A model generated the notes under the pieces. That model searched no databases, was not told where the DNA came from, and saw only the letters and a list, made by a program, of their open reading frames with translations. Of a stretch of DNA of 57,194 nt, positions 9,946 to 28,893 are shown one piece after another. Numbering within the stretch: position 1 is the first letter of the stretch; each line of letters opens with the position of its first letter. Origin of the DNA: a virus (taxonomy: Duplodnaviria > Heunggongvirae > Uroviricota > Caudoviricetes); IMG/VR virus record IMGVR_UViG_2778261542_000002, positions 1 through 57,194 of that record; one strand, 5' to 3'. The position numbers and the translations under genes were made by a program.

Positions 9946-10334
9946 AAGGCAGCCTCCTTCGAGTAGCAAATAACTGCTATCGCCGGAGTTCTCACGCTCG
10001 ATGGCGATAGCCCAGACGGGGGTGAGAATACCGGCCTCGAAGAATACCGGCCAGCCCGGAGGCTGCCCCGCCTGAGCTACCATTGACTCAGTGGCATAAC
10101 ATGCGATTGCGAACAGGATCATACCTGCACGGCAAACCACACGCCACACCATAATCTGGCGCTCTGTGGCGTTGATTGCGACACAAAAAAAGACGCATGG
10201 CGCGTCATATGTCGCCTTCGAGTTACACGGGTTCTCACGCCCGGCTGCCGATTTTGCGGCAGCGGAAAAACTATATCCGCAAATGCCGGAAAAAGGCAAG
10301 CCAGAAAAAGGGACTTTTTGCAGAACAGGCATCA

Positions 10335-13334: not shown

Positions 13335-16076
13335 ATGGCCAGGCCGTTACCACTGAATAAAGATTTGATAGTTTGTGTACCTAGTAATTATTCCAATACC
13401 TCGAGAGGGAAGTTTTTCGAGAATTTTTGCGCTGATATACTCCGCCGGCAATCGTATAGAATTGATGGTATGGAAGTCAGAAAATCTGGCATGGAAATTG
13501 ATATTCAGGCTACTCATACACCATCAAATGAAAAGCTGTATGTAGAATGTAAATTCATGCAGCAAAAAGTTGATTCATCTGTGGTTGATTTGGCATTTTC
13601 TCAAGCATTTAGGTTGAGAGTTAAAAAAATTGCACTTTTTTCAATTTCTGATTTGGGTAAAGATGCTCAGTCAACGCTTGAGGATTATAGACTTGATGAG
13701 CGTATAGATTATTCTTTTTTTGATAAAAAAGAGATTCTTATATCTATACTTGCAACAGGTAAGGTTGAGGATATTCCAACAGATGACATTCCGGCAAAAT
13801 ATACTAGTGCAACACTTTTAGTTCATCCTGAAATAGAAATGACTTGGCTTTTGCAAGAAGTTGAAAATGGTAGCCCTATAAGAGTGGTGCCGTTCGCTAT
13901 AAATAAAAATAGTAAAATTCCAAGTGTCAGTCGCATAAGTGATATTATAAAGGAGCAAGGGCTTTTTGAAGGGTTGGAAGTAACTGATTTTTATATATTA
14001 TCTGAACCGGAACAAACTGTTTCGTCTTCAAAATTATCTGAAAATTACGAAAGGGAAATTGTCAGTGAAATAATTCTTGCTGACGATTTTATGGATTATA
14101 AGCCATGTCAGCCGAAAGACTTTGTTGGTCGCGAATATATACAGAAAGAAGTTTGGGATTATCTTGAGAATGTTAGAGGAAATAGCTCTCAAAGTAGAGT
14201 CCTATCACTTATAGGCGGTTCAGGAAATGGAAAGTCATCTTTAATAGCAAGGCTATCCTCAAGATTTAAAAATCAAAAATGGAAGAATAAATTCTTCCTT
14301 ACACCAGTCGATGTCCGTTCTGCTAGAGGCGGACGTTTTGTGGCAGAAGCTGTCGTTAAAGCTTTCAGCAGTGCGATCAAAGAAGGTTTTATCGAATATG
14401 AAAAACCATTCCTGATTGAGAGTGTTACGGATATCATAGGATCTGAGAGTGTTCAGGAATGTTTAAAATACCTTTCCGAACATGATAAGGTATTGACTAT
14501 TTTCTTTGATCAGTTCGAAGAAGTCTTTATGAAAGAGGAACTATTCGGGCTATTTAAAGAATTTGAACGATTCGCACTCGATGTCTCGGCACTACAAAGC
14601 AATTTAGTTGTAGGGTTCTCATGGAGAACTGGTATTACTTTAGGGGATGAAAATCCAGCGTACTCAATGTGGAATCGGCTAAAAGATTATAGGGTTGAAA
14701 AGAAACTTGAGCCTTTTGATCTAAAAGATTCATCTAAATTAATTAATAGTTTCGAGCTAAATACAGGGTTTAAATTAAATAAACCTTTACGCACGCGTCT
14801 TATTCAGCAAGCTCAAGGTTATCCATGGTTATTGAAAAAGCTTTGTATTCATGTATTCAAAAAACTAAAAGGAGGTATCTCACAGGATCAAATGTTGGTT
14901 AGTCAACTACAGATCTCAAATTTATTTCATGAGGATTTAGATAGGCCTGAAAAACAAAATTCATGTTTAAAATTTGTGGCAAAGAACTCTCCGATTAGTC
15001 AATATGAAGTTACTAAAGAGTTTGGGAGTGATACTGTTTTAGAGCTAATTTCAGATAGGATGGTAATTAAAACAGGTGAAAAATTATCAGTGTATTGGGA
15101 CGTTTTTCGAGATTACTTGAAAGGAAATGACCTTCCAGTTATACCATGGTCATATATGCCATCAACATCTCCGAAAATGGTTTTGTTAATTCTTGATGTT
15201 GTAAACTCGTTCAAAACCATTAGCTTGGATGAACTGCAAACTAAACTAAAATATAGTCGGGGAACATTAATAAATGTTTTAATGGATTTGCAGTATTTTG
15301 TTCTCATAGACAGAGATTTAAATGGGAATATAGTTTGTAAACAGACTATCACAAATGTCCCTGAGTTTCTTCGTGAGCATTTTAAGAGTCATAGTGTTTT
15401 GTTAGAATTGGCAGAGAATATTGTTGATGCCGATTTAAGAAGAGTTCCTATCGATAAGTATGAATCTATAATAGCCCATACTTATAAGAATAAAGACGGT
15501 GGTTATCCTAAGTCTTATAGTTCAAAATTATTGGCTTGGTTACAATTTACGGGGCTGATAGCGGTTATCGGGAAATCTGTGGTTATATATGATGGCGAGT
15601 TGTTTTCCCCAGCATTTGGGGCGATTGATCTAGATAAAAGAGGGGCACGCAATAGAAGAGGATCACTTTTCTTAGCTGCTACTTCGCCAGAAAAAACACT
15701 CGAAGTTGCCGAGTATCTGTGCGCCAATAAAAAAATGAGCCATTCATTCATTCAGGCGAATAAACATAGGAATGCAGTGCAGGATTTAATTTCTTTAGGT
15801 TTTTGTTCTCGACAAGATGATGGTGTGGTGATAAATAATAAAATAGAAGTTATATTAGAAAGCATCAGCCTTGAAAGGGCTTTAGCTAGGTTAGTCACTG
15901 AATCTCCAGCTATCAAAATATTAAATGCTTATGTAAATAAATTTGGCGATGATGATAAGAAAATGATGGGGGCAGCACTAGCAAAAGAACTTGAGAGAAC
16001 ATGGACACCTGCATCTACTACTAGATATATTTATGCACTAATGAGATATCGAAATTTCGCATTGGAAACTTTATAA
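13335..16076 (+). CDS. 913-aa fusion protein: N-terminal Mrr-type PD-(D/E)xK nuclease signature + STAND-type P-loop NTPase + ~350-aa C-terminal region; candidate antiviral gene
   Basis: AAGGAG Shine-Dalgarno; AT-rich in a GC-rich element; N-terminus FENFCADILRRQSYRIDGMEVRKSGMEIDIQA...LYVECKF (Mrr catalytic pattern); DFVGRE lead-in, Walker A LIGGSGNGKSS, Walker B LTIFFDQFEE, GYPWLL (GxP-like). Confidence 0.85.
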   Translation: MARPLPLNKDLIVCVPSNYSNTSRGKFFENFCADILRRQSYRIDGMEVRKSGMEIDIQATHTPSNEKLYVECKFMQQKVDSSVVDLAFSQAFRLRVKKIALFSISDLGKDAQSTLEDYRLDERIDYSFFDKKEILISILATGKVEDIPTDDIPAKYTSATLLVHPEIEMTWLLQEVENGSPIRVVPFAINKNSKIPSVSRISDIIKEQGLFEGLEVTDFYILSEPEQTVSSSKLSENYEREIVSEIILADDFMDYKPCQPKDFVGREYIQKEVWDYLENVRGNSSQSRVLSLIGGSGNGKSSLIARLSSRFKNQKWKNKFFLTPVDVRSARGGRFVAEAVVKAFSSAIKEGFIEYEKPFLIESVTDIIGSESVQECLKYLSEHDKVLTIFFDQFEEVFMKEELFGLFKEFERFALDVSALQSNLVVGFSWRTGITLGDENPAYSMWNRLKDYRVEKKLEPFDLKDSSKLINSFELNTGFKLNKPLRTRLIQQAQGYPWLLKKLCIHVFKKLKGGISQDQMLVSQLQISNLFHEDLDRPEKQNSCLKFVAKNSPISQYEVTKEFGSDTVLELISDRMVIKTGEKLSVYWDVFRDYLKGNDLPVIPWSYMPSTSPKMVLLILDVVNSFKTISLDELQTKLKYSRGTLINVLMDLQYFVLIDRDLNGNIVCKQTITNVPEFLREHFKSHSVLLELAENIVDADLRRVPIDKYESIIAHTYKNKDGGYPKSYSSKLLAWLQFTGLIAVIGKSVVIYDGELFSPAFGAIDLDKRGARNRRGSLFLAATSPEKTLEVAEYLCANKKMSHSFIQANKHRNAVQDLISLGFCSRQDDGVVINNKIEVILESISLERALARLVTESPAIKILNAYVNKFGDDDKKMMGAALAKELERTWTPASTTRYIYALMRYRNFALETL

Positions 16077-16083: not shown

Positions 16084-16107
16084 ATCATAGGGCGAAAGCC
16101 CTATGAT
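16084..16107. terminator. bidirectional hairpin between the convergent 913-aa gene and int
   Basis: Perfect 10-bp stem ATCATAGGGC/GCCCTATGAT with GAAA loop, T-rich flank. Confidence 0.4.
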
Positions 16108-17288
16108 TTTACTTTTATACCCCACCATGACATCAATTCTCTGCGTTGTTCTAAATAAATAGAACGATTATACGCCCGCCGTACTTCATTTTTATCTATA
16201 TGCGCTAAAGCTGATTCTATAATATCGGAATTAAAACCAGACTCGTTCAACGCTGTGCTAGCTATAGAACGAAGCCCATGAGCAACGAGTTTACCGCCAT
16301 AACCAATCCTTTTAAGAGCAGCATTAGCAGTTTGGCTATTCATAGGTTGTTTAGGATCATTCCTGCTGGGAAAAACATGTTCTCGGTGAGCGCTAATTGG
16401 CTTCATTACATCCAGAATCTCTAATGCCTGTGGTGATAAAGGAACAATGTGTTCCCGCTTAGCTTTCATCCGTTCGGCTGGAATAGTCCAGAGCTTCGTA
16501 TCGAGATCGATCTCTGCCCAACGGGCACCAGAGGCCTCAGAAGGGCGCACGAGCGTCAGGAGTTGCCATTCAATGAGACAGCGAGTCGGAACAGACAGAT
16601 TTGACATGACTAAAGAACGCATCAGCTTCGGCAATTCTTCTGGCCGCAGCGTCGGCATGTTTTGTTTTTTGGGCTTCTCAAAGGCCATTCCAATACCTGA
16701 TGCTGGATTGGCATCAATCAGACCAGTGTTTACGGCATAAATCATTATCTCGTTAATACGCTGCACTAGTCGACGTACAGTCTCAAGCGCTCCACGAGCT
16801 TTGATTGGTTCCAATGCTTCAACTAATATTCGGGCTTTAATTTGCTGAACGGGGATCTCACCGATGGCAGGGAATACATCTTTCTCCAATGAGCGCCAAA
16901 TGTCTTTTGCGTAATCAGGGGTAACGCTTTTACTTTTGAGCTGGAACCAGTTAGCGGCGACCATTGAGAAAATACTGTCCAGAGCGATTTGCTGCTGTTC
17001 CTCTGCAACTTCGGCCTGAATTTGTGGGTCAATTCCGTTGGCTAACAAGGCAAGGTAATCCGCTCTTAACCCTCGGGCGTCAGCAAGTGAAAGGGCGGGG
17101 AAAGCACCAAGCCCCATCATTGTCCGCTGTTTTGTCGCTGGACGTTGATAACGGAAACGCCAGAGCTTTTTCCCGCTGGTTTTCACTATCAGGAAAAGGC
17201 CATCGCCATCATGCAGAGTTAGATCCTTCTCTAACGCTTTAGCGCGAAGAACTTCGGTGTTGGTAAGGGGGCGTGTTGTCCGTGCCAC
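16101..17288 (-). CDS. int: P4-type tyrosine integrase (395 aa)
   Basis: Catalytic-domain boxes (LTLVRPSEASGARWAEIDL; HGLRSIASTAL...RAYNRSIY); adjacent to att core; GTG start. Confidence 0.9.
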   Translation of the reverse strand: MARTTRPLTNTEVLRAKALEKDLTLHDGDGLFLIVKTSGKKLWRFRYQRPATKQRTMMGLGAFPALSLADARGLRADYLALLANGIDPQIQAEVAEEQQQIALDSIFSMVAANWFQLKSKSVTPDYAKDIWRSLEKDVFPAIGEIPVQQIKARILVEALEPIKARGALETVRRLVQRINEIMIYAVNTGLIDANPASGIGMAFEKPKKQNMPTLRPEELPKLMRSLVMSNLSVPTRCLIEWQLLTLVRPSEASGARWAEIDLDTKLWTIPAERMKAKREHIVPLSPQALEILDVMKPISAHREHVFPSRNDPKQPMNSQTANAALKRIGYGGKLVAHGLRSIASTALNESGFNSDIIESALAHIDKNEVRRAYNRSIYLEQRRELMSWWGIKVKS

Positions 17289-17338
17289 TGTGGCCGCTCC
17301 TTCATGAATTGGTATACGCTTTTAGGTATACATCCTAC

Positions 17339-17361
17339 CGTATACCTAAACGTATACCAAT
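17339..17361. repeat. 23-bp motif CGTATACCTAAACGTATACCAAT, possible integrase arm-type site (copy 2) within a cluster of GTATAC repeats
   Basis: Direct repeat of 5774-5796; additional GTATAC copies at 17311-17336. Confidence 0.3.
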
Positions 17362-17402
17362 AATCACCGGATTTAGCCGGATGTTCTCGGACAACGACAG
17401 AC

Positions 17403-17437
17403 ACAAAAAAGCCCGCAGGGCTTGTGCCATGCGGGCT
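17403..17437 (-). terminator. rho-independent terminator between att core and int
   Basis: AGCCCGCA/TGCGGGCT stem followed on the minus strand by TTTTTT; positioned as a tmRNA-gene terminator would be. Confidence 0.45.
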
Positions 17438-17472
17438 TTCTGTACTTCACCGGACGTATCCGGATCATGATT

Positions 17473-17503
17473 TGGTGGAGCTGGCGGGAGTTGAACCCGC
17501 GTC
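17473..17503 (-). other. att core identical to the 3-prime 31 nt of ssrA (tmRNA); the tmRNA gene itself is absent
   Basis: Minus strand reads GACGCGGGTTCAACTCCCGCCAGCTCCACCA, the tmRNA acceptor/T-arm end as I recall it; upstream sequence does not continue as tmRNA. Confidence 0.7.
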
Positions 17504-17628
17504 AAAATTTATATAATCTTTTGTAAAATATACGTTTTTTCTATTGTTTTTGATCCGCGTATACTTCGCGTACACTTTGCCATTTGAACTTAAACATGCT
17601 GCCGTCGCTACATCATGACATGTTATTT

Positions 17629-18315
17629 TTACTTCTCATTTTCAAAGTCATCACGAATGTTAATTAGATCTGTAATCAAAGCGCCAACTTTAGTTGAAGG
17701 ATTTATCGAACCGTCTTTTTTGGCGGCATCTTCGACTCTTTTAGCATTGATTAATGCCGTATCGAGCCGATCTTGCAATTTATTAAATACACCTGATGCC
17801 TTTTTCTCATAATCTGGCATGTATTTTTTTAACTCAGCTAGCATTTGTGCGCCTTCACTTTTGCCTTTCTGAGGTGAAAATGATTTTCGGGTGTATCCAA
17901 AATGTAGTATCAGCCAGTACTCGAAACATGGTATGGAAGTTATAGCAACAAAAATCCCTTTTGGATTTAAGGAATTAATCCTGCTAAGAGCTTCATCATA
18001 GTTAGGGTGAGCGTCTCTATCAAAGACACAATAAACCTTATCATAAGGGTCGCTCCTTTTTTTTTCCGTATTATATTTTTCTTTTGCCCAAGATACCACA
18101 TTCATAGGGCTTGAGCCGCACTCTCCAGAAATCTCAACTATGCTTGCCGTGCTTATACGGCAATGTTTTATAAAATCTGTAAAATATGCGGGCTCAGTCT
18201 TCTCTCCCTCACAGACGATAAGAATTTTCTTCATTTGAGCTCGTGCTTTACTAACTCGTTTGAATTCATTATTACGCCGAGCCTTTCTTTTTTTGAACAG
18301 ATCTTCGCTTCCCAT
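17629..18315 (-). CDS. RloB-like protein (AbiLii-like partner of the ATPase)
   Basis: N-terminal ILIVCEGEKTEPAYF and CVFDRDAHPNYDE acidic motifs, read as RloB/Toprim-like; likely start is the ATG overlapping the upstream stop (TAATG), preceded by GGGAGAG. Confidence 0.65.
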   Translation of the reverse strand: MGSEDLFKKRKARRNNEFKRVSKARAQMKKILIVCEGEKTEPAYFTDFIKHCRISTASIVEISGECGSSPMNVVSWAKEKYNTEKKRSDPYDKVYCVFDRDAHPNYDEALSRINSLNPKGIFVAITSIPCFEYWLILHFGYTRKSFSPQKGKSEGAQMLAELKKYMPDYEKKASGVFNKLQDRLDTALINAKRVEDAAKKDGSINPSTKVGALITDLINIRDDFENEK

Positions 18316-19580
18316 TAATATCTCTCCCATTTCCCAATGAGTGGTAAAGCCCCATATCTACCGTCAAGATAAGAAGCTTCTAAATTCTCCCTTCCTTTTC
18401 TTGGACTAAAATCCGTAAGTGGGAAAAGATTTGTTTGCTTTGAATTGTCTTTTTCTACAAACCAAATCTGATCTCGTCTGAAAACATCTTGATTTAAAAT
18501 AGACGTCTCATGAGTTGTAAAGATTAACTGGGCACCATTCTTATTGATATTTTTATCGTGAAATAAACCTACAATAAACTCAACTAATTTGGGGTGTAAG
18601 TTATCATTTAATTCATCAATAAACAGGATGTTTCCTGTCTCGAGTGAATGTGATAAGGGACCCGCGAAACTAAAGATTTTTCTAGTTCCATGCGATTCAT
18701 CTTTTAAATCGAATGGAATTGGCTCTCCATCCTCATTATTATGAAGTGTTTTAATGACATATTCTTCCTTGCCTTGCATATTCTTAATCACTAGTTCCTT
18801 GATGGCTGCAGGCATATCATCAGGAAGAGCATTGGGATTGAATTTTTCTTTTGTTACATGAATGTCATCAATACCTACATCGGCAGCTTTTAAAAAATTG
18901 AGAATCTCATCTTTCTTATCATTTAAGCATTGCTTTGCACTGTAATCACTATCCCAACCTGTTAATTCAGTAAATTTAACTTTGTAATAAAACCAATCGT
19001 ATACAGGTTTTAGTTGTACACTGTTTAATTGTACCGCTGTAGAAAGAAAGAGCGCATTAGGCCTGGTTGATTTCAACCATGTTTGTTTTTCTCCTGTCAA
19101 CGATGGCCCCAACTCCCATTCATGGGTTTGTTTTTCTTCATCCCATAGACGTAAAAACCATTTTTGTGGTCTGCCTTTGGGGAATGCAAATAACCATTCG
19201 TCGTGAATAAAATCTTCTGTTGCAGAAAAACCATACTGGTATCTGATGCCTTCGGAAATAAAGTTAATTTCAAATTCAGATGGTTGATTAATCTTCTTTG
19301 AGTCTAGTCTAAAAGGCGTGATATCAAGTTTATCACCACTTTTATAACCTGTAGCAGACCGGACAATAAGTTCAGCCATAGTTGTAATAGCGTTAATAAT
19401 GTTTGATTTTCCGGCAGCATTAGGGCCATAAATCACAGCACTTTTAAGCAATTCAAGAGATTTAGGTTCATCAATACTGAACAGATTATTAGGCAAATCG
19501 TTAAGTTTTGATGCAACTAAACTCAGTGTTTGTTTCTCTGAAATAGATTTATAGTTTTGTACTGTAAACTCAATCAACAT
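18315..19580 (-). CDS. ABC/AAA-type ATPase (AbiLi-like)
   Basis: Walker A GPNAAGKSN, Walker B ILFIDELNDNLHP, H-loop-like QLIFTTHETS; AT-rich; translationally coupled to the RloB-like gene. Confidence 0.8.
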   Translation of the reverse strand: MLIEFTVQNYKSISEKQTLSLVASKLNDLPNNLFSIDEPKSLELLKSAVIYGPNAAGKSNIINAITTMAELIVRSATGYKSGDKLDITPFRLDSKKINQPSEFEINFISEGIRYQYGFSATEDFIHDEWLFAFPKGRPQKWFLRLWDEEKQTHEWELGPSLTGEKQTWLKSTRPNALFLSTAVQLNSVQLKPVYDWFYYKVKFTELTGWDSDYSAKQCLNDKKDEILNFLKAADVGIDDIHVTKEKFNPNALPDDMPAAIKELVIKNMQGKEEYVIKTLHNNEDGEPIPFDLKDESHGTRKIFSFAGPLSHSLETGNILFIDELNDNLHPKLVEFIVGLFHDKNINKNGAQLIFTTHETSILNQDVFRRDQIWFVEKDNSKQTNLFPLTDFSPRKGRENLEASYLDGRYGALPLIGKWERY

Positions 19581-19770
19581 AATTTATACCCTTTTAACTT
19601 CCCATAGCTTAAAAACCACTAAAAGTGATTTTATAGCACAAATTTGACAAAAAACGTCAAATCTTTGCATTTAATGCACACTAAAACCATTGTACACTAT
19701 CCTCATCATCCTGCTAACATTCTTGTAAGCTTTACTGTTTTGCGAAGGGGGGCTAGTGCTATCGGGCGTT

Positions 19771-20967
19771 TTACTTCTCAATTTTCATGTTCTCCGGATT
19801 TTTTGATACTTGGTCCTTACAAGCTGTCTTGCCATCATAGTCTACGAGATACGAACCATAATGCCTGAAAAGCATTTCCGGCCCTTTATGCCCCATTTGA
19901 GCTGCAAGCCAAAACAGATTTGCTCCTCGGCTGATATGGCTGGTGGCGAATGTATGCCTAGTTTGATATGGATTTCTGTATCGAATACCTGCTTTCCGTA
20001 ATGTTGGCACCCATGCTTTTTTCCTGATTGCATCAGCACTTGCCCAAGGCTTATTGGTCTTTGGGTCTTCAAAGACAGTAGCATCCTTCATGAATGTAAA
20101 TGGCTTCTGATTTATCAGCGCCAACATAGCCTCTTCTGTCAGTTCAACTTTACGAGTACCGGCTTTTGTCTTTGTTCCTTTGATAACACCGACAACACTT
20201 GCACTCTGGACATGGGCAGTTTTTCCAACAAAGTCGATATCACGCCATCTAAGGGCACATAATTCAGAACTACGCAGGCCTGTATGTATAGCGAACCGGA
20301 ACAGATTCTCCCATTGTTTGTTTCCGGCTGCTGCTAGTAATGCATCAACTTCTGTTGGTGATAGCGGATCAACCACGTAGCAGCTTTCTGCTTCTGACTT
20401 ATCACTTTGGTAGCGCGAAGCAGTTACCAACGATACGGGGTTAATTTGAAGTACCCCATCGGTTACGGCTTCATCAAGTGCTGACCGCAGGAAAGATAAC
20501 TGGTTGCGAATTGTTTTTAAGGTCGTTTTCTGGCTTTGAATCCACGCTTTCAGGATTGCTGGTGTTAATTCACTTGCAGGGCAAATGTGGAGTGAGGCTA
20601 ACGCACTGCGGCATTTTTTATAACCACCAATCGTTGAGGGTGAGAGTTTTCTCGTTTCGCAGATTTCAAGGTATTCGTCCAGGTACATTTTTACCGTTTT
20701 GCCTGCAGCAGCATTACCAAAAATTTTCAAACGAGCAGAACGGGGAAAATATTCCGCATAAATGAATGTTCCCCTTTCGATCTTATTATGAATTTCGCCG
20801 AGTGTGCGCTCGGCGTATTTAATGTTCTTTGGTGTTACTTCCAGATTGGAAAGAGGCTCACGACATTTAACTCCTTTGTAGGTGAAAGTTATATTGATCG
20901 TTTCGCCCTGGCGGTGTTTCCTGATTGTTACGCCGCGCGGTAGTTTGAGCAGTTTTGTCTGGCCCAT
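19771..20967 (-). CDS. int: phage tyrosine integrase (398 aa)
   Basis: Catalytic boxes TGLRSSELCALRWRDID and RHTFATS...LAAQMGHKGPEMLFRHYGSY. Confidence 0.9.
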   Translation of the reverse strand: MGQTKLLKLPRGVTIRKHRQGETINITFTYKGVKCREPLSNLEVTPKNIKYAERTLGEIHNKIERGTFIYAEYFPRSARLKIFGNAAAGKTVKMYLDEYLEICETRKLSPSTIGGYKKCRSALASLHICPASELTPAILKAWIQSQKTTLKTIRNQLSFLRSALDEAVTDGVLQINPVSLVTASRYQSDKSEAESCYVVDPLSPTEVDALLAAAGNKQWENLFRFAIHTGLRSSELCALRWRDIDFVGKTAHVQSASVVGVIKGTKTKAGTRKVELTEEAMLALINQKPFTFMKDATVFEDPKTNKPWASADAIRKKAWVPTLRKAGIRYRNPYQTRHTFATSHISRGANLFWLAAQMGHKGPEMLFRHYGSYLVDYDGKTACKDQVSKNPENMKIEK

Positions 20968-21146
20968 TTTGCAACCTCACTAAGATCAATCCACCTCTCC
21001 TTAACGCCTTCAACCTTTAAAACCTGAACACCTTCACGCCAAACACCGCGCTGTACACGTTTGTTTATTGCTTCAGGAGTTTCGCCAGTTTCTTTGCAAT
21101 AAGTTGAGATTGGAACACAATCGAGGTTCAGCATATGTTTCTCCAC
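20928..21146 (-). CDS. xis: excisionase-like protein
   Basis: Small basic protein just upstream of and overlapping int; CKETGETPEAINKRVQRGVWREGV winged-helix-like segment. Confidence 0.6.
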   Translation of the reverse strand: MEKHMLNLDCVPISTYCKETGETPEAINKRVQRGVWREGVQVLKVEGVKERWIDLSEVAKWARQNCSNYRAA

Positions 21147-21193
21147 TTAGCCCGCTGCACACGGGCAGTAATACCAAATTCCAGTCCTGATAA

Positions 21194-21409
21194 TTAATTT
21201 TGTTCCCTGGTTGCTACCTGTTTTATTGGCCTGATGCTGTCCAGTAGCAGACGGCGACGCATGTTAGGTGCACCCCAACGGTAACCAGTCTTTTTGTCGT
21301 AGGATTCACAACGTCCGGCAACCCAGGACGTTTCAGTGGAATGTAATTTCATCCGCTTTTCACCGTCTCGGGTGATAACAATTCCTGTATGAGTTTTTAT
21401 CACGCTCAT
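21194..21409 (-). CDS. hypothetical protein (71 aa)
   Basis: ORF in early-left operon, overlaps neighbour by 4 nt. Confidence 0.45.
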   Translation of the reverse strand: MSVIKTHTGIVITRDGEKRMKLHSTETSWVAGRCESYDKKTGYRWGAPNMRRRLLLDSIRPIKQVATREQN

Positions 21410-21768
21410 TTCTTAGTCTCTGGTGCTTTCGGCATTACTGCCCAGTGAGTGATATTGACGTTTTCAAGGTCCCCGATCTGAAATGTCCACTGCCATTCTC
21501 CGGTTTCTTTTTGTCCCCAGGTGTACCAGAGAGAACGCCAGCCAATCAGCCAGCCTTCTCCGTTAGCATCAAATAACAGAACACTTTCATTTGCTGGAGG
21601 CAGTTCAGCTGACACTGGTATTATTTTGCTTTCCAGTGCCGCACATTTAGCTTCAAGCGCGTCGAATTTACGTACCAGGTACTCAGCATTTGTTTCGTTC
21701 ACTTTCAGATCTCGCGGTACACATTTCCCGCGAAGAAACCCTTCCATTTCGAAAACATTCATGCGCAT
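21406..21768 (-). CDS. DUF551-type prophage protein
   Basis: C-terminal W-rich signature WQWTFQIGDLENVNITHWAVMPKAPE, read as DUF551 family. Confidence 0.6.
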   Translation of the reverse strand: MRMNVFEMEGFLRGKCVPRDLKVNETNAEYLVRKFDALEAKCAALESKIIPVSAELPPANESVLLFDANGEGWLIGWRSLWYTWGQKETGEWQWTFQIGDLENVNITHWAVMPKAPETKK

Positions 21769-22322
21769 TTGCGTAACTCCGATAATTCGTTAAAGCGTTC
21801 CATAAACATCCCGTAGGCATGGCCTGGAGCCAGTGGAATCACGTTGAACATCTCTGTTGCCGGGATACCTTCCAGCACAGGCCAGAAAGAGCCATCATCA
21901 AGCCCGAGATCGCGGCGTTCGGTTGCCAGCATGATGAGATCGGCATATTTCACGGGTGTACTCATAACCGGGGGTAACCCGTATTTCTCACGGATTGCGG
22001 CGTCTATTTTTTCTTCCATCCGTTTATAGTCAGGAAGAAGGCGTTTCAGTGGAGCCGGGATGTCCTGGCAATACGCTTCTGTTGCATCATGCATTAACGC
22101 TTCAAAAGCAAATTCCTGCGGTACCAGCTGGCTGCAAAGCACCGCATGTTGGGCGACGCTGTAGAAGTGTGAAAGATGTCCTGCAAAGCGACAGATATTT
22201 GAAAGGGAAACCGCGATATCGTTAATAACGATGTCGTCTTTATTTATCCTGTCATAATAAAAATGCTTCCCGGAAAAAGTTTTAATAAATGACATTTTGT
22301 TCTCCACGTATATGCGCTGCAC
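21759..22322 (-). CDS. HD-domain phosphohydrolase
   Basis: H..H and HD motifs (SVAQHAVLCS; MHDATEAY). Confidence 0.7.
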   Translation of the reverse strand: MQRIYVENKMSFIKTFSGKHFYYDRINKDDIVINDIAVSLSNICRFAGHLSHFYSVAQHAVLCSQLVPQEFAFEALMHDATEAYCQDIPAPLKRLLPDYKRMEEKIDAAIREKYGLPPVMSTPVKYADLIMLATERRDLGLDDGSFWPVLEGIPATEMFNVIPLAPGHAYGMFMERFNELSELRKCA

Positions 22323-22808
22323 CGCGCTGAATTCGGGTAAAAGGAAGCCCTCACCGTCCGGCGATTATTGAGTCAATTACATTTCCATAAATGCCCCCGT
22401 AGGGGCGGTTAGTTTCTCCACAAAACAGAGAAGAACACCTGCGGTGGCAGCCGCCCGGATGGATTGGGTTATGAGCCTGTCGTCCGATGATGCTCTTCTC
22501 TGTTTTGTAAAAAGGATGGTACCAGCCGGAAGCAAGGGTACAAACTGGTACCGCCAAGACTACACACAGCATAAAGTTGTGGTGCAGGGTGCCTCCCGGT
22601 GCCTGGCGAAGGTTGCACACCAGGCGGGTGGGTATCCACAGAAGGTCGACTGTCAGCCTCAACCTTAACCCGCGTGCGCTGAGCCGCATTCACCACAACG
22701 CTAAGGATTCTCTTTGGTTGAAAATACTTAGCTGTTATGTGCCTGTCTTTTCACCACTTCAGGCTCGGTGGTATCCTTTTAAGCCCGTATACATAAAAGG
22801 AAAATCAA

Positions 22809-23006
22809 ATGACTTTTGATGAAAAAGAACTTGATAATGCAATTAATAAAATCATCGTAACGTCGCTCTTTTCCTGTCTCAGCGACACTCAGCAGAAACA
22901 GTTCTACGAATCGGCTTTCAACATGATCGAGCGTTGTTGTTTCTGCGATGCCGACGAGTTACCTGAAAAAATCAGGAAACAGTTGGCTGATGCTCTTCGA
23001 GTGTGA
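22809..23006 (+). CDS. hypothetical protein (65 aa)
   Basis: ORF only; converges on the next gene. Confidence 0.35.
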   Translation: MTFDEKELDNAINKIIVTSLFSCLSDTQQKQFYESAFNMIERCCFCDADELPEKIRKQLADALRV

Positions 23007-23247
23007 CTTTCTGACCAATTTTCTGAAATGTGCTCTCCGAATTTGGACAAATAGAAAAAGGCCATTTCCATTCAGGGTCTGATGGAAATACTTCAGCCTG
23101 TTCCAAAGCACGGCGTAAAGAGAACACAACTCCAGCCATAATCTGATGTTTCCCATTGGTCCAGCTATCGCCGCTCTGATCTACAGGGGCGGCTATGTCG
23201 TATGACCAAACGACTTCACAGTTATTGTTTAAAATCTGGACTTTCAT
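22972..23247 (-). CDS. hypothetical protein (~91 aa), first gene of the leftward early operon
   Basis: ATG at 23247 preceded by AGGTG; no N-like motif recognised. Confidence 0.35.
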   Translation of the reverse strand: MKVQILNNNCEVVWSYDIAAPVDQSGDSWTNGKHQIMAGVVFSLRRALEQAEVFPSDPEWKWPFSICPNSESTFQKIGQKVTLEEHQPTVS

Positions 23248-23453
23248 TTCATACACCTGCTTTAACATGAGTGCCTGGTGGCACAACATGACTCAACGAA
23301 TCATCCTGGACTTCATATGCCCCAGGCGGCTACTTCGTGGGCGTCCTGCCTGTTCGTTATCTTTGATATAAAATCTAACTTAACTTAGTTATTATGGCAA
23401 GAGAAAACACCAAACTTTTCTTAGTTCGGTGCCTTAGTTAGAGAAGAGAGGTC

Positions 23454-24080
23454 TTAGAGTTCGTATTGAACTCCTTTGACTACACCAATGATAAGGCAAT
23501 TACCATTGATAGGGATGTTGGGATACCGAGGATTTAATGGCACTAAAAACTTTTGAGGGCCATCGATGACTAATTTTTTTACTGTAGCTTCGTTTGTTCC
23601 ATCAAGTCGAGCGATGACTATTTTTCCATGACGAGGTTCTGCATCTGGATCTACAATCACTGTTGCGCCTTCTGGTATTGTTGGGAGGCCATTAGGGTTA
23701 GTCATGGAGTCACCTTTAACCTCTAATGCAAATGAGTTATCACCAATCTTTAATGATGTATCTACCCACTTGTCCACTTCACTAAACACTTCTGCTGCCC
23801 TGCACTCAGTAAACTGCCCAGCCTGAACCCACGATATTACAGGAACTCTGCGCATGTTTGTGACGAGTTTGCCTTCAAACTCAGCACCATAAAGAATGTA
23901 ATCTATTGACGTATTGAAGAACTTCGCTAATTTCGAAAGTGCCTCCCCACCAGGGGTATTGATGTCTTTCTCCCAGTACCCCACAGCAACGTCGCTTACT
24001 CCACAAAATTTACCCAATTCTTTCTGGGACGTTCCGGTAACTCTTCTCAGAGCTTTTATACGCTGACCAACCGTTTCCAT
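23454..24080 (-). CDS. cI: CI-type repressor (HTH + S24 LexA-like peptidase domain)
   Basis: N-terminal HTH (GTSQKELGKFCGVSDVAVGYWE) and C-terminal autocleavage domain with GDSM; divergent from the cro-like gene. Confidence 0.85.
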   Translation of the reverse strand: METVGQRIKALRRVTGTSQKELGKFCGVSDVAVGYWEKDINTPGGEALSKLAKFFNTSIDYILYGAEFEGKLVTNMRRVPVISWVQAGQFTECRAAEVFSEVDKWVDTSLKIGDNSFALEVKGDSMTNPNGLPTIPEGATVIVDPDAEPRHGKIVIARLDGTNEATVKKLVIDGPQKFLVPLNPRYPNIPINGNCLIIGVVKGVQYEL

Positions 24081-24177
24081 AGGAGCACCATTTCTTGAAT
24101 TGCTAAGTAATCTTAGTTTTTATTGACCAAAGATAGATTTGTAATTAGCATCTAATAAAACTTAGTTTGGAGGGCGT

Positions 24178-24378
24178 ATGACAACTGACGATATCGAAAG
24201 CTACTTCGGCAGTATTGAGAAAGTTGCTGCTTTTTTCGGCATAACAACTGAAGCCGTTTATCAGTGGCGAAACCGTCCGGGCCAGTTAATTCCAAAAGGA
24301 CGTGCAGCAGAAGCTGCATATAGAACTTGCGGACGGTTGCCATTTAAACCTGAGCTTTATGAAAAATCTAATGGATAA
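24178..24378 (+). CDS. cro: Cro-like HTH regulator
   Basis: 66-aa protein divergent from cI with helix-turn-helix-like segment. Confidence 0.6.
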   Translation: MTTDDIESYFGSIEKVAAFFGITTEAVYQWRNRPGQLIPKGRAAEAAYRTCGRLPFKPELYEKSNG

Positions 24379-24967
24379 ATCGATTAACAGAAACCACAGA
24401 ACGATGAGGCTAACCGTGGGTAAGCATCACTGGAAAGTAGAAAAACAGCCTGAGTGGTACGTGAAAGCTGTCAGAAAAACTATCGCAGCGTTGCCGGGTG
24501 GTTACGCTGAAGCAGCTGACTGGCTGGATGTAACAGAAAACGCATTATTTAACCGCCTTCGTGCCGATGGCGATCAGATTTTCCCGCTGGGATGGGCAAT
24601 GATTTTGCAACGTGCTGGTGGAACTCACTTCATTGCTGACGCTGTGGCGCAGTCTGCAAATGGCGTCTTTGTGTCTCTTCCTGACGTCGAGGATGTGGAC
24701 AACGCCGATATTAACCAGCGCCTGCTGGAAGTCATTGAACAGATTGGCAGTTATTCCAGACAGATTCGTTCGGCAATCGAAGACGGTGTGGTGGAACCGC
24801 ATGAGAAGACAGCAATTAACGACGAGCTGTATCTCTCAATTTCGAAGCTGCAGGAGCATGCAGCACTGGTCTACAAAATCTTTTGCATTTCAGAAAGTAA
24901 TGACGCCCGCGAGTGTGCAGCTCCGGGCGCCGTGGCGTGTCGTGACTGTGGAGAAACTAACGCATGA
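24359..24967 (+). CDS. phage regulatory protein (CII/YdaT-like, putative)
   Basis: Position immediately after cro; start uncertain (ATG 24359 or 24371). Confidence 0.45.
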
Positions 24968-25322
24968 ACAGTTTAACAACACACTACCGTCGCTCGCAAC
25001 TGATTGCGCTTCCTGTACCGGGTGGAAAAGCGAAGGTGGAGTATTGCTATGCAGTTAATGTACCAGGTGACAGGGAAATTGTAACCCACAGCTTTGCTGA
25101 GTGGGCTGTGGGTGATTTCAACCGGCAGAAGGAGACAGTCCTTTGCGACAAGTTAACCGCTGGTTCAAAGATCACTACGGAGTGCCCGTCAGAGTCATTC
25201 GTTGGGAGCCGGAAACACAACGGGTTATCTACCTCCGTGAAGGCTATGAGCATGAGTGCTTCAGCCCGCTCGAACAGTTTCGTCGTAAATTCAGGGAAAT
25301 AGAGGTCGGTCATGAGCACTAA
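24964..25322 (+). pseudogene. small gene apparently frameshifted between cII-like and replication genes
   Basis: Frame-1 ORF starts by ATGA overlap with the upstream stop; a second frame (from about 25113) reads ..[51 protein letters not shown] and ends overlapping the next start. Confidence 0.3.
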
Positions 25323-26223
25323 ATTAACCGGCTATGTATGGGATGGTTGCGCAGCGTCAGGCATGAAATTATCCAGCGTGGCAATTATGGCCCGCCTGGC
25401 TGATTTCAGTAATGACGAAGGTGTGTGCTGGCCATCAATTGAAACCATTGCCCGTCAGATTGGCGCGGGGATGAGTACCGTCAGGACGGCTATCGCACGG
25501 CTGGAAGCAGAAGGCTGGTTAACGCGTAAGGCGCGTCGCCAGGGTAACCGCAATGCGTCGAATGTTTATCAGCTTAACGTTGCGAAGCTTCAGGCAGCGG
25601 CATTTTCTCAACTGTCAGATTCTGACCCGTCAAAATTTGATGCGTCGAAATCTGGCAAAAAAGCGGGTTTTCACCCGTCAGAATCTGGCGGGGATCCGTC
25701 AGTAAAATCAAAACATGATCCGTCAGATAAAAAACCTTCTCGTCCGGACGCTTCGCAACCGGACACGCAGACGGATGAACAGGATTTTTTAACTCGCCAT
25801 CCTGATGCGGTTGTATTCAGCCCTAAAAAGCGCCAGTGGGGGACGCAGGATGATTTGACCTGCGCACAGTGGCTTTGGAAAAAAATCATCGCCCTGTACG
25901 AGCAGGCCGCCGAATGTGACGGCGAGGTGGTTCGTCCCAAAGAACCTAACTGGACAGCCTGGGCAAACGAAATTCGCCTGATGTGTGTGCAGGATGGTCG
26001 TACTCACAAACAAATCTGCGAGATGTACAGCCGCGTCAGCCGCGATCCGTTCTGGTGCCGTAACGTGATCAGCCCGTCGAAGTTGCGGGAAAAATGGGAT
26101 GAGCTTTCCCTGCGCTTATCGCCGTCCGTCAGCACGCACACAGAAAAACGTGAAGACCCGTACTTCAAAGCCAGTTACGACAACGTGGACTACAGCCAGA
26201 TCCCGGCAGGATTTAGGGGGTGA
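25312..26223 (+). CDS. phage replication initiation protein (N-terminal winged-helix DNA-binding domain)
   Basis: N-terminus MSTKLTGYVWDGCAASGMKLSSVAIMARLADFSNDEGVCWPSIETIARQIGAGMSTVRTAIARLEAEGWL, typical of phage replication proteins; acidic/Ser-rich linker. Confidence 0.65.
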   Translation: MSTKLTGYVWDGCAASGMKLSSVAIMARLADFSNDEGVCWPSIETIARQIGAGMSTVRTAIARLEAEGWLTRKARRQGNRNASNVYQLNVAKLQAAAFSQLSDSDPSKFDASKSGKKAGFHPSESGGDPSVKSKHDPSDKKPSRPDASQPDTQTDEQDFLTRHPDAVVFSPKKRQWGTQDDLTCAQWLWKKIIALYEQAAECDGEVVRPKEPNWTAWANEIRLMCVQDGRTHKQICEMYSRVSRDPFWCRNVISPSKLREKWDELSLRLSPSVSTHTEKREDPYFKASYDNVDYSQIPAGFRG

Positions 26224-26714
26224 TCATGAGTCTGTTAAATGACGTTCAGAAATTCATTGAAGCCCATCCGGGGTGCACTTCCGGAGACATTGCGGATGCT
26301 TTTGCTGGTTACTCACGGCAGCGCGTTCTGCAGTCAGCAAGCAAGTTACGTCAGAGTGGGCGTGTGGCTCACCGTTGTGAAGGAGATACACGCAGACATT
26401 TCCCGCGCCTGACTGAGAGAGCGCAGGAACCGGAACCACAACCAGTTCGAGAAACCAGACCTGTGCGCAATTTCTATGTCTGCACTAACGATCCCCGGGT
26501 GATTTTGTGCCTGACCCGCCAGGCTGAAGAACTGGAGTCAAGGGGCTTATACCGTCGTGCTGCAACCGTGTGGATGGCGGCATTCCGTGAAAGCCACTCC
26601 CAGCCAGAACGAAACAATTTTCTGACGCGTCGTGAGCGGTGCTTACGGAAAAGCAGCAAGCGCGCTGCATCGGGTGAAGAGTGGTATCTGTCAGGGAATT
26701 ACGTGGGGGCTTAA
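26220..26714 (+). CDS. hypothetical regulatory protein (164 aa; N-terminal winged-helix-like, basic C-terminus)
   Basis: ORF coupled to flanking genes (overlapping stops/starts). Confidence 0.5.
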   Translation: MIMSLLNDVQKFIEAHPGCTSGDIADAFAGYSRQRVLQSASKLRQSGRVAHRCEGDTRRHFPRLTERAQEPEPQPVRETRPVRNFYVCTNDPRVILCLTRQAEELESRGLYRRAATVWMAAFRESHSQPERNNFLTRRERCLRKSSKRAASGEEWYLSGNYVGA

Positions 26715-27367
26715 TGAGTAATAAATATTGCCAGGCGCTGGTGGAACTGCGGAACAAACCAGCCCATGAACTGAAGGAAGTGGGCGATCAGTGGCGCACG
26801 CCGGACAACATTTTCTGGGGAATTAACACCCTGTTTGGCCCGTTTGTTCTGGATCTGTTTACTGACGGTGATAACGCCAAATGTGCCGCGTATTACACGG
26901 CGGAAGATAACGCGCTGGCGCATGACTGGTCAGAACGTCTTGCGGAGCTTAAAGGTGCTGCCTTTGGTAATCCCCCATACAGCCGCGCCAGTCAGCATGA
27001 GGGGCAATACATCACCGGCATGCGTTACATCATGAAACATGCCAGTTCCATGCGTGATAAGGGCGGGCGCTATGTTTTCCTGATCAAAGCTGCCACCAGC
27101 GAAGTGTGGTGGCCGGAAGATGCGGACCATATTGCTTTTATTCGCGGGCGTATTGGTTTTGAACTGCCTGCCTGGTTTATCCCGAAGGATGAGAAGCAGG
27201 TGCCGACAGGAGCGTTCTTCGCTGGCGCTATTGCTGTTTTCGATAAGACCTGGAAGGGAGCGGCAATCAGCTACATCGGGCGCGATGAACTTGAGGCATG
27301 TGGTGAGGCCTTTCTGGCGCAGGTTCGCCAGCAGGCAGAAAAACTGGTCAGGGAGATGGCGGCATGA
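26714..27367 (+). CDS. phage N6-adenine DNA methyltransferase (Dam-like)
   Basis: NPPY catalytic motif (FGNPPYS) with the preceding WRTPDNIFW block. Confidence 0.8.
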   Translation: MSNKYCQALVELRNKPAHELKEVGDQWRTPDNIFWGINTLFGPFVLDLFTDGDNAKCAAYYTAEDNALAHDWSERLAELKGAAFGNPPYSRASQHEGQYITGMRYIMKHASSMRDKGGRYVFLIKAATSEVWWPEDADHIAFIRGRIGFELPAWFIPKDEKQVPTGAFFAGAIAVFDKTWKGAAISYIGRDELEACGEAFLAQVRQQAEKLVREMAA

Positions 27368-27690
27368 CGACGTTAACTCAATGCCAGCAGCAGGTGCTGG
27401 ATATGCTGATTTCTTACCAGAAAGAGCGTGGCTTTCCGCCAACCAATCAGGAGGTGGCAACCATGCTGGGATACCGTTCAGTGAATGCAGCGGTGGAGCA
27501 TCTTCGCGCACTGGAGAAAAAAGGCGTCATCACGATAAAGCGTGGCGTGGCCCGGGGTATCACTCTTCATACCGCGGTGAAGGACGACGACAGCGAGGCG
27601 GCCGGGATTATCCGCTCACTGCTTGCCGGTGAGGAAAACGCCAGGCTGCGTGCAGCCCACTGGTTATATGAGAGGGGCCTGAAAGTATGA
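27364..27690 (+). CDS. LexA-N-terminal-like DNA-binding protein
   Basis: QQQVLDMLISYQKERGFPPTNQEVATMLGYRSVNAAVEHLRALEKKGVI resembles the LexA DNA-binding domain; no peptidase domain. Confidence 0.55.
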   Translation: MTTLTQCQQQVLDMLISYQKERGFPPTNQEVATMLGYRSVNAAVEHLRALEKKGVITIKRGVARGITLHTAVKDDDSEAAGIIRSLLAGEENARLRAAHWLYERGLKV

Positions 27691-28076
27691 AGCTGATTCT
27701 GCCGTTTCCGCCCAGCGTGAACACGTACTGGCGACACCCCAACAAAGGGGCGTTTGCAGGTAAGAGCCTGATAAGTGCGGCGGGGCGAAAATTCCAGAGC
27801 GCGGCGTGCGCAGCAATAGTTGAACAGTTACGTCGTCTGCCGAAACCAACGTCGGCACCTGCTTCAGTGGAGATCGTGTTGTTTCCTCCGGATAACAGGA
27901 TCCGCGATCTGGACAACTATAACAAGGCGCTGTTTGACGCCCTGACCCACGCGGGGGTGTGGGAAGACGACAGTCAGGTGAAAAGAATGCTGGTGGAGTG
28001 GGGACCGGTTATCCCGGAAGGGAAGGTCGAGATCACTATCAGTAAGTATGAGAAACCGGCGGGTGCAGCCGCCTGA
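27687..28076 (+). CDS. rusA: RusA Holliday-junction resolvase
   Basis: LPFPPSVNTYWR ... RDLDNYNKALFDALTHAGVWEDDSQV matches the RusA signature. Confidence 0.85.
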   Translation: MKLILPFPPSVNTYWRHPNKGAFAGKSLISAAGRKFQSAACAAIVEQLRRLPKPTSAPASVEIVLFPPDNRIRDLDNYNKALFDALTHAGVWEDDSQVKRMLVEWGPVIPEGKVEITISKYEKPAGAAA

Positions 28077-28095
28077 TTAAGAGGAGAAACGAAGT

Positions 28096-28893
28096 ATGAA
28101 TAATCTGATGGTTATTGATGGTATTGAAGTTCGTCGTGATGCTTATGGGCGTTACAGCCTGAACGATCTGCACAGGGCTGCTGGTTCTCTGGATAAGCAT
28201 AAGCCTGCATTCTGGCTCCGCAATGAGCAAACTGAGCGTTTAATAAGCGAGTTGCAGATTTGCAACTCGGTCAATATAGAGCCAGTTAACGTTATTCGTG
28301 GCGGAAATAACCAGGGGACGTATGTCTGCAAAGAACTGGTGTATGCCTATGCAATGTGGATCAGCCCGTCATTCCATCTGAAGGTGATCCGTACTTTCGA
28401 TATGGTAACCAGCGCACCGGAAAAATTATCCGGGCAGGCTGCTGACAAGATGCAGGCTGGAGTGATTCTGCTGGACTTTATGCGCAGGGAGTTAAACCTG
28501 TCTAACTCTTCAGTGCTTGGGGCCTGTCAGAAACTCCAGGAGGCTGTTGGCTTACCGAATCTGGCACCGCGCTATGTCATTGATGCTCCTGCTGATGCGC
28601 CTGATGGCTCAAGCCGCCCCACGCTGTCACTGAGTGCACTGCTGAAGCAGTATGGTATCCGCCTGACAGCTAATCAGGCATATCACCAAATGGTGAAGCT
28701 GGGGATCGTCGAGCAGCGCGAACGATACAGCCGTACCGCGATTAACAACATCAAAAAATTCTGGTCGCTGACAGCGAAAGGCTGCATGTTCGGCAAGAAC
28801 ATCACCAGTCCCGCAAATCCGCGCGAGACGCAGCCGCATTTCTTCGAATCCCGATTCCCTGAGCTGTTAAAGCTGCTCGATACCGTTCATTGA
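28096..28893 (+). CDS. KilA-N domain protein (antirepressor-like)
   Basis: N-terminal IDGIEVRRDAYGRYSLNDLHRAAG..KPAFWLRN KilA-N pattern. Confidence 0.7.
   Translation: MNNLMVIDGIEVRRDAYGRYSLNDLHRAAGSLDKHKPAFWLRNEQTERLISELQICNSVNIEPVNVIRGGNNQGTYVCKELVYAYAMWISPSFHLKVIRTFDMVTSAPEKLSGQAADKMQAGVILLDFMRRELNLSNSSVLGACQKLQEAVGLPNLAPRYVIDAPADAPDGSSRPTLSLSALLKQYGIRLTANQAYHQMVKLGIVEQRERYSRTAINNIKKFWSLTAKGCMFGKNITSPANPRETQPHFFESRFPELLKLLDTVH

Follow-up and report, generated by a model that had tools for sequence, protein, structure and literature searches.

A probable AbiL-type anti-phage gene pair carried by an ssrA-integrating lambdoid prophage

A 57,194-nt stretch of viral DNA (IMG/VR record IMGVR_UViG_2778261542_000002; "the window" hereafter means this whole stretch) carries two overlapping genes that encode an AbiLi-like ATPase and a small AbiLii-like protein of the RloB family. 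The pair is probably a prophage-encoded, two-gene anti-phage module of the AbiL type (RloA/RloB type), carried as cargo by a lambdoid prophage that integrates at ssrA and likely working as a Toprim nuclease restrained by its ATPase. The two proteins match the AbiL profiles, their catalytic motifs are intact, the genes are organized as an operon, and the pair and its homologues occur on mobile elements and within defence islands. For the sequestration and release of the nuclease, the trigger, the substrate and the abortive outcome, the proposal made below argues by analogy with related systems.

Family identity of the gene pair

Both open reading frames (ORFs) are located on the minus strand, exactly where a first-pass annotation of this DNA had placed them. 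The module is AT-rich: its GC content is 0.361, whereas the window as a whole has 0.494 and the prophage outside the module 0.513. The genes are co-oriented, adjacent and overlapping, which is the arrangement by which PADLOC and DefenseFinder define an AbiL operon. The overlap is the TAATG at 18315 (GAT ATT AAT GGG), where a single base is common to the stop codon of the ATPase gene and the ATG of the small-protein gene. The small-protein ORF is open from 18330 (17629..18330, minus strand), and the reading of 228 amino acids begins at the ATG at 18315. We take this to be the correct start because a Shine-Dalgarno sequence (GGGAGAG) is found 8 nt 5' of the ATG, because the homologues share the resulting N-terminus (MG(S/T)xx(L/I/V) in 38 of the 38 aligned, mostly MGSxDLF, with M1 and G2 invariant), and because the RefSeq start in the closest genome, Escherichia coli EC1722-1, also yields 228 residues. 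The first-pass description of two AT-rich, translationally coupled genes with a TAATG overlap was therefore accurate, as was its length of about 228 residues for the second product, and every motif it had quoted for either protein is present in the translation.

The upstream gene encodes an ABC ATPase of the Rad50/SMC/PtuA type. Pfam AAA_21 matched over the full length of the model (E = 1.3e-38; 134 bits against a cut-off of 27) and AAA_15 matched at 9e-9. Within PADLOC the AbiLi model (PDLC02335) scored 336 bits (4.2e-101), and the runner-up at 128 bits (2e-37) was the generic AriA model, which covers the same residues and profile length as Pfam AAA_21; PtuA, Old, HEC-01A and other models matched weakly. 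NCBIfam returned no specific model for either protein of the pair. Beyond the Walker motifs that had already been noted, the translation contains an ABC signature and an H-loop, and residues G52, N54, A55, G57 and K58 of Walker A are invariant among 40 homologues. Conservation of the protein is unusually high, at 55-60% identity across Gammaproteobacteria, and one 58%-identical homologue is named RloA by a source. The solved folds closest to its AlphaFold2 (AF2) model (pLDDT 86.4) are PtuA, from retron I-A, Ec78 and Septu complexes, and the heads of Rad50 and SMC proteins (E ~1e-10 to 1e-11, TM 0.4-0.6); AriA structures were absent from the 50 best fold matches. Using hhalign, the block running from the signature through Walker B to the H-loop was aligned with the equivalent block of P2 Old (E 6e-5). 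A housekeeping ABC transporter was considered and rejected, as only marginal FtsE and RecF matches were found, far below the cut-off; the AAA_21, AAA_15 and AbiLi matches agree with the earlier view that this is an ABC-type ATPase.

The downstream gene product matches Pfam RloB over model positions 1-195 of 195 (1.1e-39; 137 bits against a cut-off of 31.5) and the PADLOC model AbiLii (PDLC02337) at 3.2e-29, the remaining PADLOC matches being weak PDC-M12B candidates. Its AF2 model (pLDDT 85.7, pTM 0.80) has an alternating strand-helix core, in which E36 is positioned directly after strand 1 (residues 29-35) and D99-R-D101 directly after strand 3 (residues 93-99). A glutamate following strand 1 together with DxD following strand 3 is the signature of Toprim domains generally and of RloB in particular (PMC12065111). 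Lactococcal and plasmid-borne versions were included in a diverse alignment of 50 members, in which the invariant residues are D99, E132, H138 and Y169, and E36, D101, H103 and K171 are conserved in at least 90% of sequences. A Foldseek search of the model against the PDB gave nothing significant. The reading of this protein as a Toprim-like putative nuclease is well supported by the motif geometry and the literature, rather than by fold searches, and it agrees with what had been proposed by eye from the glutamate and DxD motifs. Residues 1-28 are predicted to be disordered (pLDDT below 50), and they are basic and strongly conserved (M1, G2, L6, F7, K9, R20); this tail may be a docking peptide for the ATPase or may bind nucleic acid or another substrate. 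RloB homologues are numerous, with 1707 matches in a word-indexed search and 6333 matches at E<=1e-3 among 1.84 billion cluster representatives in an exhaustive search. The best 150 of these 6333 representatives are 115-318 residues long (mostly 200-245), which is too short for a fused ATPase.

Sequence comparison supports assignment of the pair to the AbiL family, because both proteins match the respective profiles, because the genes adjoin and overlap, and because the proteins are homologous to a lactococcal pair. ORF55 and ORF56 of the Lactococcus prophage proPhi7, annotated "abortive phage resistance protein", match the same PADLOC AbiLi and AbiLii models. The window ATPase aligns with ORF55 over its full length at 30% identity (E 1e-46), and the small protein aligns with ORF56 at 28% identity over 101 residues (E 2e-6). 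The AbiL-type architecture that the first-pass annotation had suggested is upheld by this evidence.

We regard it as extremely unlikely that the pair belongs to PARIS, class 1 OLD, Gabija or Septu rather than to AbiL. The generic AriA match, the weak PtuA, Old and HEC-01A matches, the PtuA-like fold of the ATPase and the block shared with P2 Old all point towards these systems; however, the AbiLi model outscores the next one by 336 to 128 bits, and the partner protein matches only RloB and AbiLii. A Pfam scan at E<=10 detected DUF4435 neither in the small protein nor in any of 39 homologues, and the same scan of the 39 RloB homologues found neither Toprim_OLD nor HNH. AAA_21, AAA_15 and RloB, by comparison, were matched as the first-pass annotation had anticipated. 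PARIS membership was rejected on this partner domain and on the lack of an AriB match in PADLOC, and membership of class 1 OLD (P2 Old) was rejected on the two-gene layout, ATPase and Toprim being encoded by separate ORFs and not fused; these two alternatives, previously left open, are now excluded as memberships. Gabija was rejected because no helicase ORF (GajB, UvrD-type) is found between 16101 and 20967, and Septu because the partner is RloB with no HNH (PtuB) match, the likeness being confined to the PtuA-like fold of the ATPase. Membership of the RloAB genes linked to restriction-modification (R-M) was likewise rejected, as there is no hsd operon and the neighbours are two integrase genes and the ssrA core.

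Table 1. Features of the gene pair, its leader and its carrier, with comparison loci (window coordinates unless another sequence is named)
Feature	Position	Strand	Basis or remark
ATPase gene, abiLi-like	18315..19580	-	421 aa; RefSeq WP_044527605.1, "AAA family ATPase"
Small-protein gene, abiLii-like	17629..18315	-	228 aa, RloB family, Toprim-like putative nuclease effector; WP_032211342.1
Walker A GPNAAGKS (K58)	19404..19427	-	translation
Walker B ILFIDE (D322, E323)	18612..18629	-	translation
ABC signature ESHGT	18684..18698	-	translation; additional to first-pass motifs
H-loop IFTTHE	18507..18524	-	translation; additional to first-pass motifs
Toprim glutamate motif CEGEKTE (E36)	18193..18213	-	translation, alignment, AF2 model
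Toprim DxD motif DRDAH (D99, D101, H103)	18007..18021	-	translation, alignment, AF2 model
Promoter-like site TTAGCA-17-TACAAT	19689..19717	-	consensus scan; ~30 nt upstream of palindrome
Palindrome TTGACAAAAAACGTCAA (TTGAC-N7-GTCAA)	19644..19660	.	65-80 nt upstream of ATPase start; candidate operator, -35 element or leader hairpin
Leader hairpin then U-run (AAAAUCAC-UUUUA-GUGGUUUUU; CAC/GTG stem)	19611..19632	-	folding
Direct repeats GTGTACGCG / GTATACGCG	17556..17575	-	~50-75 nt from ssrA core
att core, duplicated 3' end of ssrA (tmRNA)	17473..17509	-	right end of lambdoid prophage and left end of P4-like satellite
Lambda-type integrase of module-carrying prophage	19771..20967	-	Pfam Arm-DNA-bind_2 and Phage_integrase
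P4-type integrase	16101..17288		profile search
Alternative slot cargo: 577-aa AAA ATPase and Dam-like methylase			related E. coli prophage
Alternative slot cargo: two hypothetical proteins			CFT073
Alternative slot cargo: one 259-aa hypothetical protein			strain R3
Inspected cargo slots	L007 2135-4986; L008 3313-4947; L009 4101-4962		related E. coli prophages
Plasmid-borne ATP-binding protein and RloB pair	NZ_AP027671.1 (L023) 493-2458		plasmid example

The carrier prophage and its cargo slot

The short att core beyond the module is the duplicated 3' end of ssrA. It matches at 26 of 26 positions (17473-17498) and is unique in the window, with 0 such sites expected by chance, and the interval 17300-17509 matches the ssrA loci of thousands of E. 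coli genomes. Neither ARAGORN nor Rfam at the gathering score found a complete tRNA or tmRNA gene in the window; just the last ~37 nt of ssrA are present. The closest genome, EC1722-1, is 100% identical to the window over 17300-19800 and 99% identical over 34643-57194, with the coordinate offset shifting by 527 bp within 19800-34643, so that the strain from which the window derives is closely related to EC1722-1 but distinct from it. In that genome the prophage has the full ssrA gene at its opposite end, some 40 kb away and immediately beyond a pair of genes for a cytosine methyltransferase and a type II restriction enzyme; the full ssrA and the restriction enzyme, which would fall beyond the right end of the window, are thus taken from EC1722-1 and not from the window itself. 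We infer the following order: ssrA, a lambdoid/e14-like myovirus prophage ending in int-abiLi-abiLii, the duplicated ssrA core, and a P4-like satellite that runs, after the core, through the P4-type int, an Mrr-STAND gene, psu, delta and sid to alpha. With this layout, a single copy of the core therefore bounds the prophage on its right and the satellite on its left.

The module was found in 15 of 5426 complete E. coli genomes, always beside the same integrase gene, and its ORFs are identical or 99% identical across these 15 unrelated strains. This distribution, together with the GC content of 0.36, fits a recent horizontal acquisition. In all 15 genomes the homology spans int and the module and ends at varied points beyond the core, and in the O103:H2 strain CEC12044 a different P4-type island follows the core. 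Close to the core is a pair of direct repeats (Table 1) that are probably arm-type Int-binding sites of attP; three related prophages with other cargo have an equivalent pair, (A/C)CGC-AAAG-N3-CCGC, equally far from the core. If the repeats have this role, the cargo sits between int on one side and the attP arm and core on the other. Four observations, namely these repeats, the limits of homology in the 15 genomes, the alternative cargo of related prophages and the matching position of the pairs in Enterobacter and Cronobacter (the last two described below), show that the module is cargo inside the lambdoid prophage and not filler at a junction. From this position it would be carried along when the phage excises and transfers. 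The first-pass annotation had described a 2.1-kb gap between a P4-like att core and the integrase of the neighbouring prophage, and had considered it a junction hotspot. Both integrases and the core are real; the gap measures about 2.27 kb from the core to the int stop, the core is the ssrA 3' end and serves both elements, and the junction reading gives way to a location within the prophage.

The same interval holds different genes in related prophages. The window int is found at 94-99% identity in 402 E. coli genomes, and in most of the matches shown the homology ends 45-85 nt before the int stop codon; among related prophages the length of Int varies from 388 to 398 residues. Three related prophages that were inspected (int 94-98% identical) have other cargo between int and the ssrA core (Table 1). 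Cargo is not typically placed between an integrase gene and the att site, although P2 and phage-inducible chromosomal islands (PICI) offer examples (PMC13586616), and the window module represents a further example of defence cargo in this position.

Homologous pairs were recovered from nine independent contexts. In all loci fetched the ATPase gene precedes the RloB gene, and the spacing between them ranges from -8 to +12 nt. The pairs of Enterobacter and Cronobacter, whose ATPases are 84-85% identical to that of the window, are located directly behind the Arm-DNA-bind_2 integrase of a lambdoid prophage; in Cronobacter a P4-type integrase again follows the pair, and at one Enterobacter locus the pair is closely followed by a type I R-M island. 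Across genera the ATPase is 84-86% and RloB 74-77% identical, with all motifs kept. The Klebsiella P2-like phage ST13-OXA48phi12.1 and its prophage copies encode a 61%-identical ATPase with an RloB partner between gpA/DinI and the portal gene, which is the slot of old/tin in P2, and this gpA-portal interval is a known defence hotspot (PMC9122126, PMC13586616). In Cellvibrio japonicus the pair has a Wadjet (JetABCD) operon on one side and a type III R-M system on the other. More distant pairs, whose RloB protein is 31-34% identical to that of the window, are the only cargo of 3.7-5.2 kb mobilisable plasmids of the Rop/ColE1 type in E. coli, Klebsiella and Salmonella.

Other genes of interest were seen elsewhere on the two elements. 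The other prophage end also has cargo of the defence type: window positions 54586-57194 encode a GIY-YIG protein together with a C5 cytosine methyltransferase, and the methyltransferase ORF stops precisely where the window stops; beyond this point, in the closest genome (NZ_CP081192.1, locus L010, 14913-19361), a type II restriction endonuclease comes next, beside the full-length ssrA. Within the satellite, positions 13335-16076 (plus strand) encode a protein of 913 residues that combines an Mrr-type restriction endonuclease domain at its N-terminus with an NTPase domain of the nSTAND1/AAA_16 type. Its gene lies between int and psu, the classic P4 defence hotspot, and with no PADLOC match beyond a weak one to DndF it is a candidate uncharacterised Avs-like STAND defence gene. 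Rfam matches at the gathering score to C4 antisense RNA, isrK and c4-a1b1 targets at 10000-10276 (minus strand) mark the P4-type immunity region of the satellite.

The leader of the cassette

Upstream of the ATPase gene, the palindrome reported by the first-pass annotation is present at 19644-19660. On the coding strand it reads TTGACGTTTTTTGTCAA and can be extended to a 7-bp arm. TTGAC-N7-GTCA occurs once in the window when both strands are counted, against 0.41 expected, and at least two sites were obtained in 10 of 100 shuffles, so that the count within the window is not significant. All of the enterobacterial homologous loci that were fetched (Enterobacter, Cronobacter and the Klebsiella P2-like phage) have the arms TGAC...GTCA, with differing spacers, 62-95 nt before the ATPase start codon; the arms were not found at the Cellvibrio locus. 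Because they recur at the same relative position in the homologous loci, the palindrome appears to move together with the cassette rather than with the phage backbone. When the leader RNA was folded by consensus, the palindrome pairs never varied and there was therefore no covariation, a pattern that fits a DNA operator and an RNA hairpin equally; folding of single leader sequences gave weak z-scores (-0.4 to -2.4). An operator role for the palindrome would require a host or phage factor as the binder, because no DNA-binding domain is recognisable in either protein.

The best-conserved promoter-like site, TTAGCA-17-TACAAT, is found further upstream. The int-linked loci of E. coli, Enterobacter and Cronobacter share the block GTTAGCAG-N-GGTGTACAATGGT but diverge on either side of it; in the Klebsiella phage, another promoter-like site is found at a comparable distance. 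Matches to the promoter consensus are modest (9/12). An alternative promoter in E. coli, TTGACG-19-TATAAA with a TGc extended -10, has a -10 element that is not conserved in Enterobacter, Cronobacter or Klebsiella, and the upstream site is preferred for this reason. The palindrome thus probably lies downstream of the promoter-like site and not in it: its presence, as noted by the first-pass annotation, is confirmed, and it is conserved with the module, whereas the overlap with the likely promoter that had been proposed for it depends on the non-conserved alternative. Between the palindrome and the ATPase start, folding predicts a hairpin followed by a U-run (Table 1), and in Enterobacter a GGCC/GGCC stem occupies the same place. 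This hairpin could be an attenuator or the terminator of int.

A broader hypothesis brings these observations together, and we offer it tentatively, considering it possible but doubtful as a whole. The interval from int to attP in ssrA-integrating lambdoid prophages would be an unrecognised, rapidly exchanging slot for defence cargo, with its boundary in the last 15-28 codons of int. As a self-contained unit equipped with its own conserved leader, composed of the TGAC-N9-GTCA palindrome and the hairpin, the AbiL cassette would shuttle among small plasmids, the gpA-portal hotspot of P2 and this slot. That leader would act as the switch that limits a PARIS-like Toprim nuclease, directed at RNA, to a level that is tolerable until infection occurs.

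Proposed action and comparison with known systems

AbiL was described as an abortive infection system in Lactococcus (Deng 1999, as cited in PMC13064643), where it acts after transcription for Ceduovirus and needs no gene beyond these two (PMC13064643). Listed among the pairs that a toxicity-neutralisation assay validated is an RloB-type Toprim protein of Clostridium algidicarnis with its AAA ATPase partner (PMC10440598, Fig. 6B). The nearest system of known mechanism is PARIS, where an ATPase hexamer holds the Toprim nuclease until a phage protein is sensed, upon which the nuclease is released and cleaves tRNA-Lys (PMC11464382); by analogy, PARIS is the best available model for how the module may act. 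According to this model, a promoter in the 190-nt spacer between int and abiLi would drive both genes, and their translation would be coupled. AbiLi would oligomerise and hold AbiLii, a putative metal-dependent nuclease of Toprim fold, inactive in uninfected lysogens. The ATPase would sense a product or a consequence of infection by a competing phage, whereupon AbiLii would be released or activated to cut nucleic acid, which might be tRNA or other RNA, as the PARIS analogy suggests, or DNA. Phage development would then halt, and the cell would pay for this by ceasing to grow or by dying.

Several points weigh against this interpretation. A 2026 review states that whether AbiL and RloAB work like PARIS remains to be determined (PMC13064643), and a literature search found no experimental test of an enterobacterial AbiL. 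Deletion of ariA in PARIS is reported to be non-toxic (PMC9122126), such that a simple toxin-antitoxin picture may not carry over. The Toprim region was not aligned in a profile-profile comparison of the RloB alignment with P2 Old, and searches of PDB sequences with both proteins and with a profile of 39 RloB sequences returned nothing meaningful. Moreover, the lactococcal comparison was made with the proPhi7 prophage copy and not with the founding AbiL sequences of pND861.

Other roles for the pair can be weighed against an anti-phage one. It might be mainly an addiction module resembling a toxin-antitoxin system, one that kills cells from which the prophage, or the tandem ssrA island array, has been lost, thereby stabilising that element, and that has no real anti-phage role. 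The location at the very end of the prophage would suit this, as would the toxin-antitoxin pairs validated by toxicity neutralisation (PMC10440598), which include an RloB-type protein, and the ColE1-type plasmids of 3.7-5.2 kb, where a stabilising role for the only cargo is plausible. We nevertheless consider it unlikely, since the founding AbiL has a phage-resistance phenotype (PMC13064643), homologues reside in defence hotspots and islands (the P2 gpA-portal interval; beside Wadjet and R-M genes), and a 421-residue ABC ATPase with all of its catalytic motifs conserved goes far beyond the needs of a simple antitoxin; addiction and defence are in any case not mutually exclusive.

A role as an accessory of restriction-modification (the "R-M linked ORF" RloA/RloB), acting with the type II R-M genes of the prophage or with a phage methyltransferase, is in our view very improbable. 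No R-M gene adjoins the window pair, the R-M genes of the prophage are about 36 kb away, and the Klebsiella P2-like phage, Cronobacter and the small plasmids have the pair without an R-M neighbour, just as lactococcal AbiL functions by itself. These facts count for more than the origin of the name RloB in type I R-M loci (PMC10440598, PMC12065111), the homologue named RloA beside a type III R-M system, the type I island near the Enterobacter locus, or the C5 methyltransferase at the other end of the same prophage, which in the closest genome is joined by a type II restriction enzyme. It is also very unlikely that the module is a decaying remnant that is silent, or that is expressed only upon prophage induction by read-through from int. 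The modest promoter matches and the terminator-like hairpin in the leader could be taken that way, but both ORFs are intact in the 15 E. coli strains, purifying selection is evident from the identities and retained motifs across genera, a good Shine-Dalgarno sequence is present, and the promoter-like block is conserved. An AbiL-type defence module therefore remains the preferred explanation.

The proteins themselves were already known, in that RefSeq holds both accessions with family-level names and PADLOC models recognise both, and the view of the pair as an ordinary member of a known family is well supported. Added here are the ssrA identity of the core, the placement between int and the attP arm, the variable-cargo slot, and the conserved leader that moves with the cassette. 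Structures exist for the relatives PARIS, Gabija and Septu. A native E. coli AbiL would be a convenient model for working out the trigger, substrate and assembly of AbiL, being compact, carried by an inducible prophage, equipped with clear catalytic residues and housed in a tractable host for which coliphage panels exist, and close relatives in a sequenced Klebsiella phage add to its value.

Among known systems, AbiL of Lactococcus lactis pND861 resembles the window pair in having a co-oriented, coupled AAA_21-type ATPase gene followed by one for a small RloB/Toprim protein, and in its mobile carrier. The window pair differs in its Gram-negative host, in being carried by a lambdoid prophage and not a plasmid, and in its small protein, which is marginally similar to the lactococcal one and has the conserved, basic, disordered tail of about 28 residues beginning MGSxDLF. 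The RloA/RloB genes of Campylobacter type I R-M loci share with it the Pfam family of the small protein, and one ATPase homologue bears the RloA name, but no hsd genes adjoin the window pair. In the OLD family (P2 Old, class 2 OLD and GajA) the situation is different, since in the window the two activities are on separate polypeptides and there is no profile match to the Old Toprim region. Septu and retron I-A (PtuA-PtuB) also combine an ATPase with a nuclease, and PtuA is the closest solved fold to the window ATPase; however, the window nuclease is predicted to be Toprim-like rather than HNH, and no reverse transcriptase or msDNA locus accompanies it. PARIS likewise pairs an AAA_15/21 ABC ATPase (AriA) with a separate Toprim-like protein (AriB) and is often found on phages and satellites. 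The AbiL ATPase falls in the same tree as that of PARIS, and AbiL is grouped next to PARIS among the systems that combine an ABC ATPase with a TOPRIM protein (PMC11464382); the difference between the two lies in the partner, which is RloB in the window and DUF4435 in PARIS.

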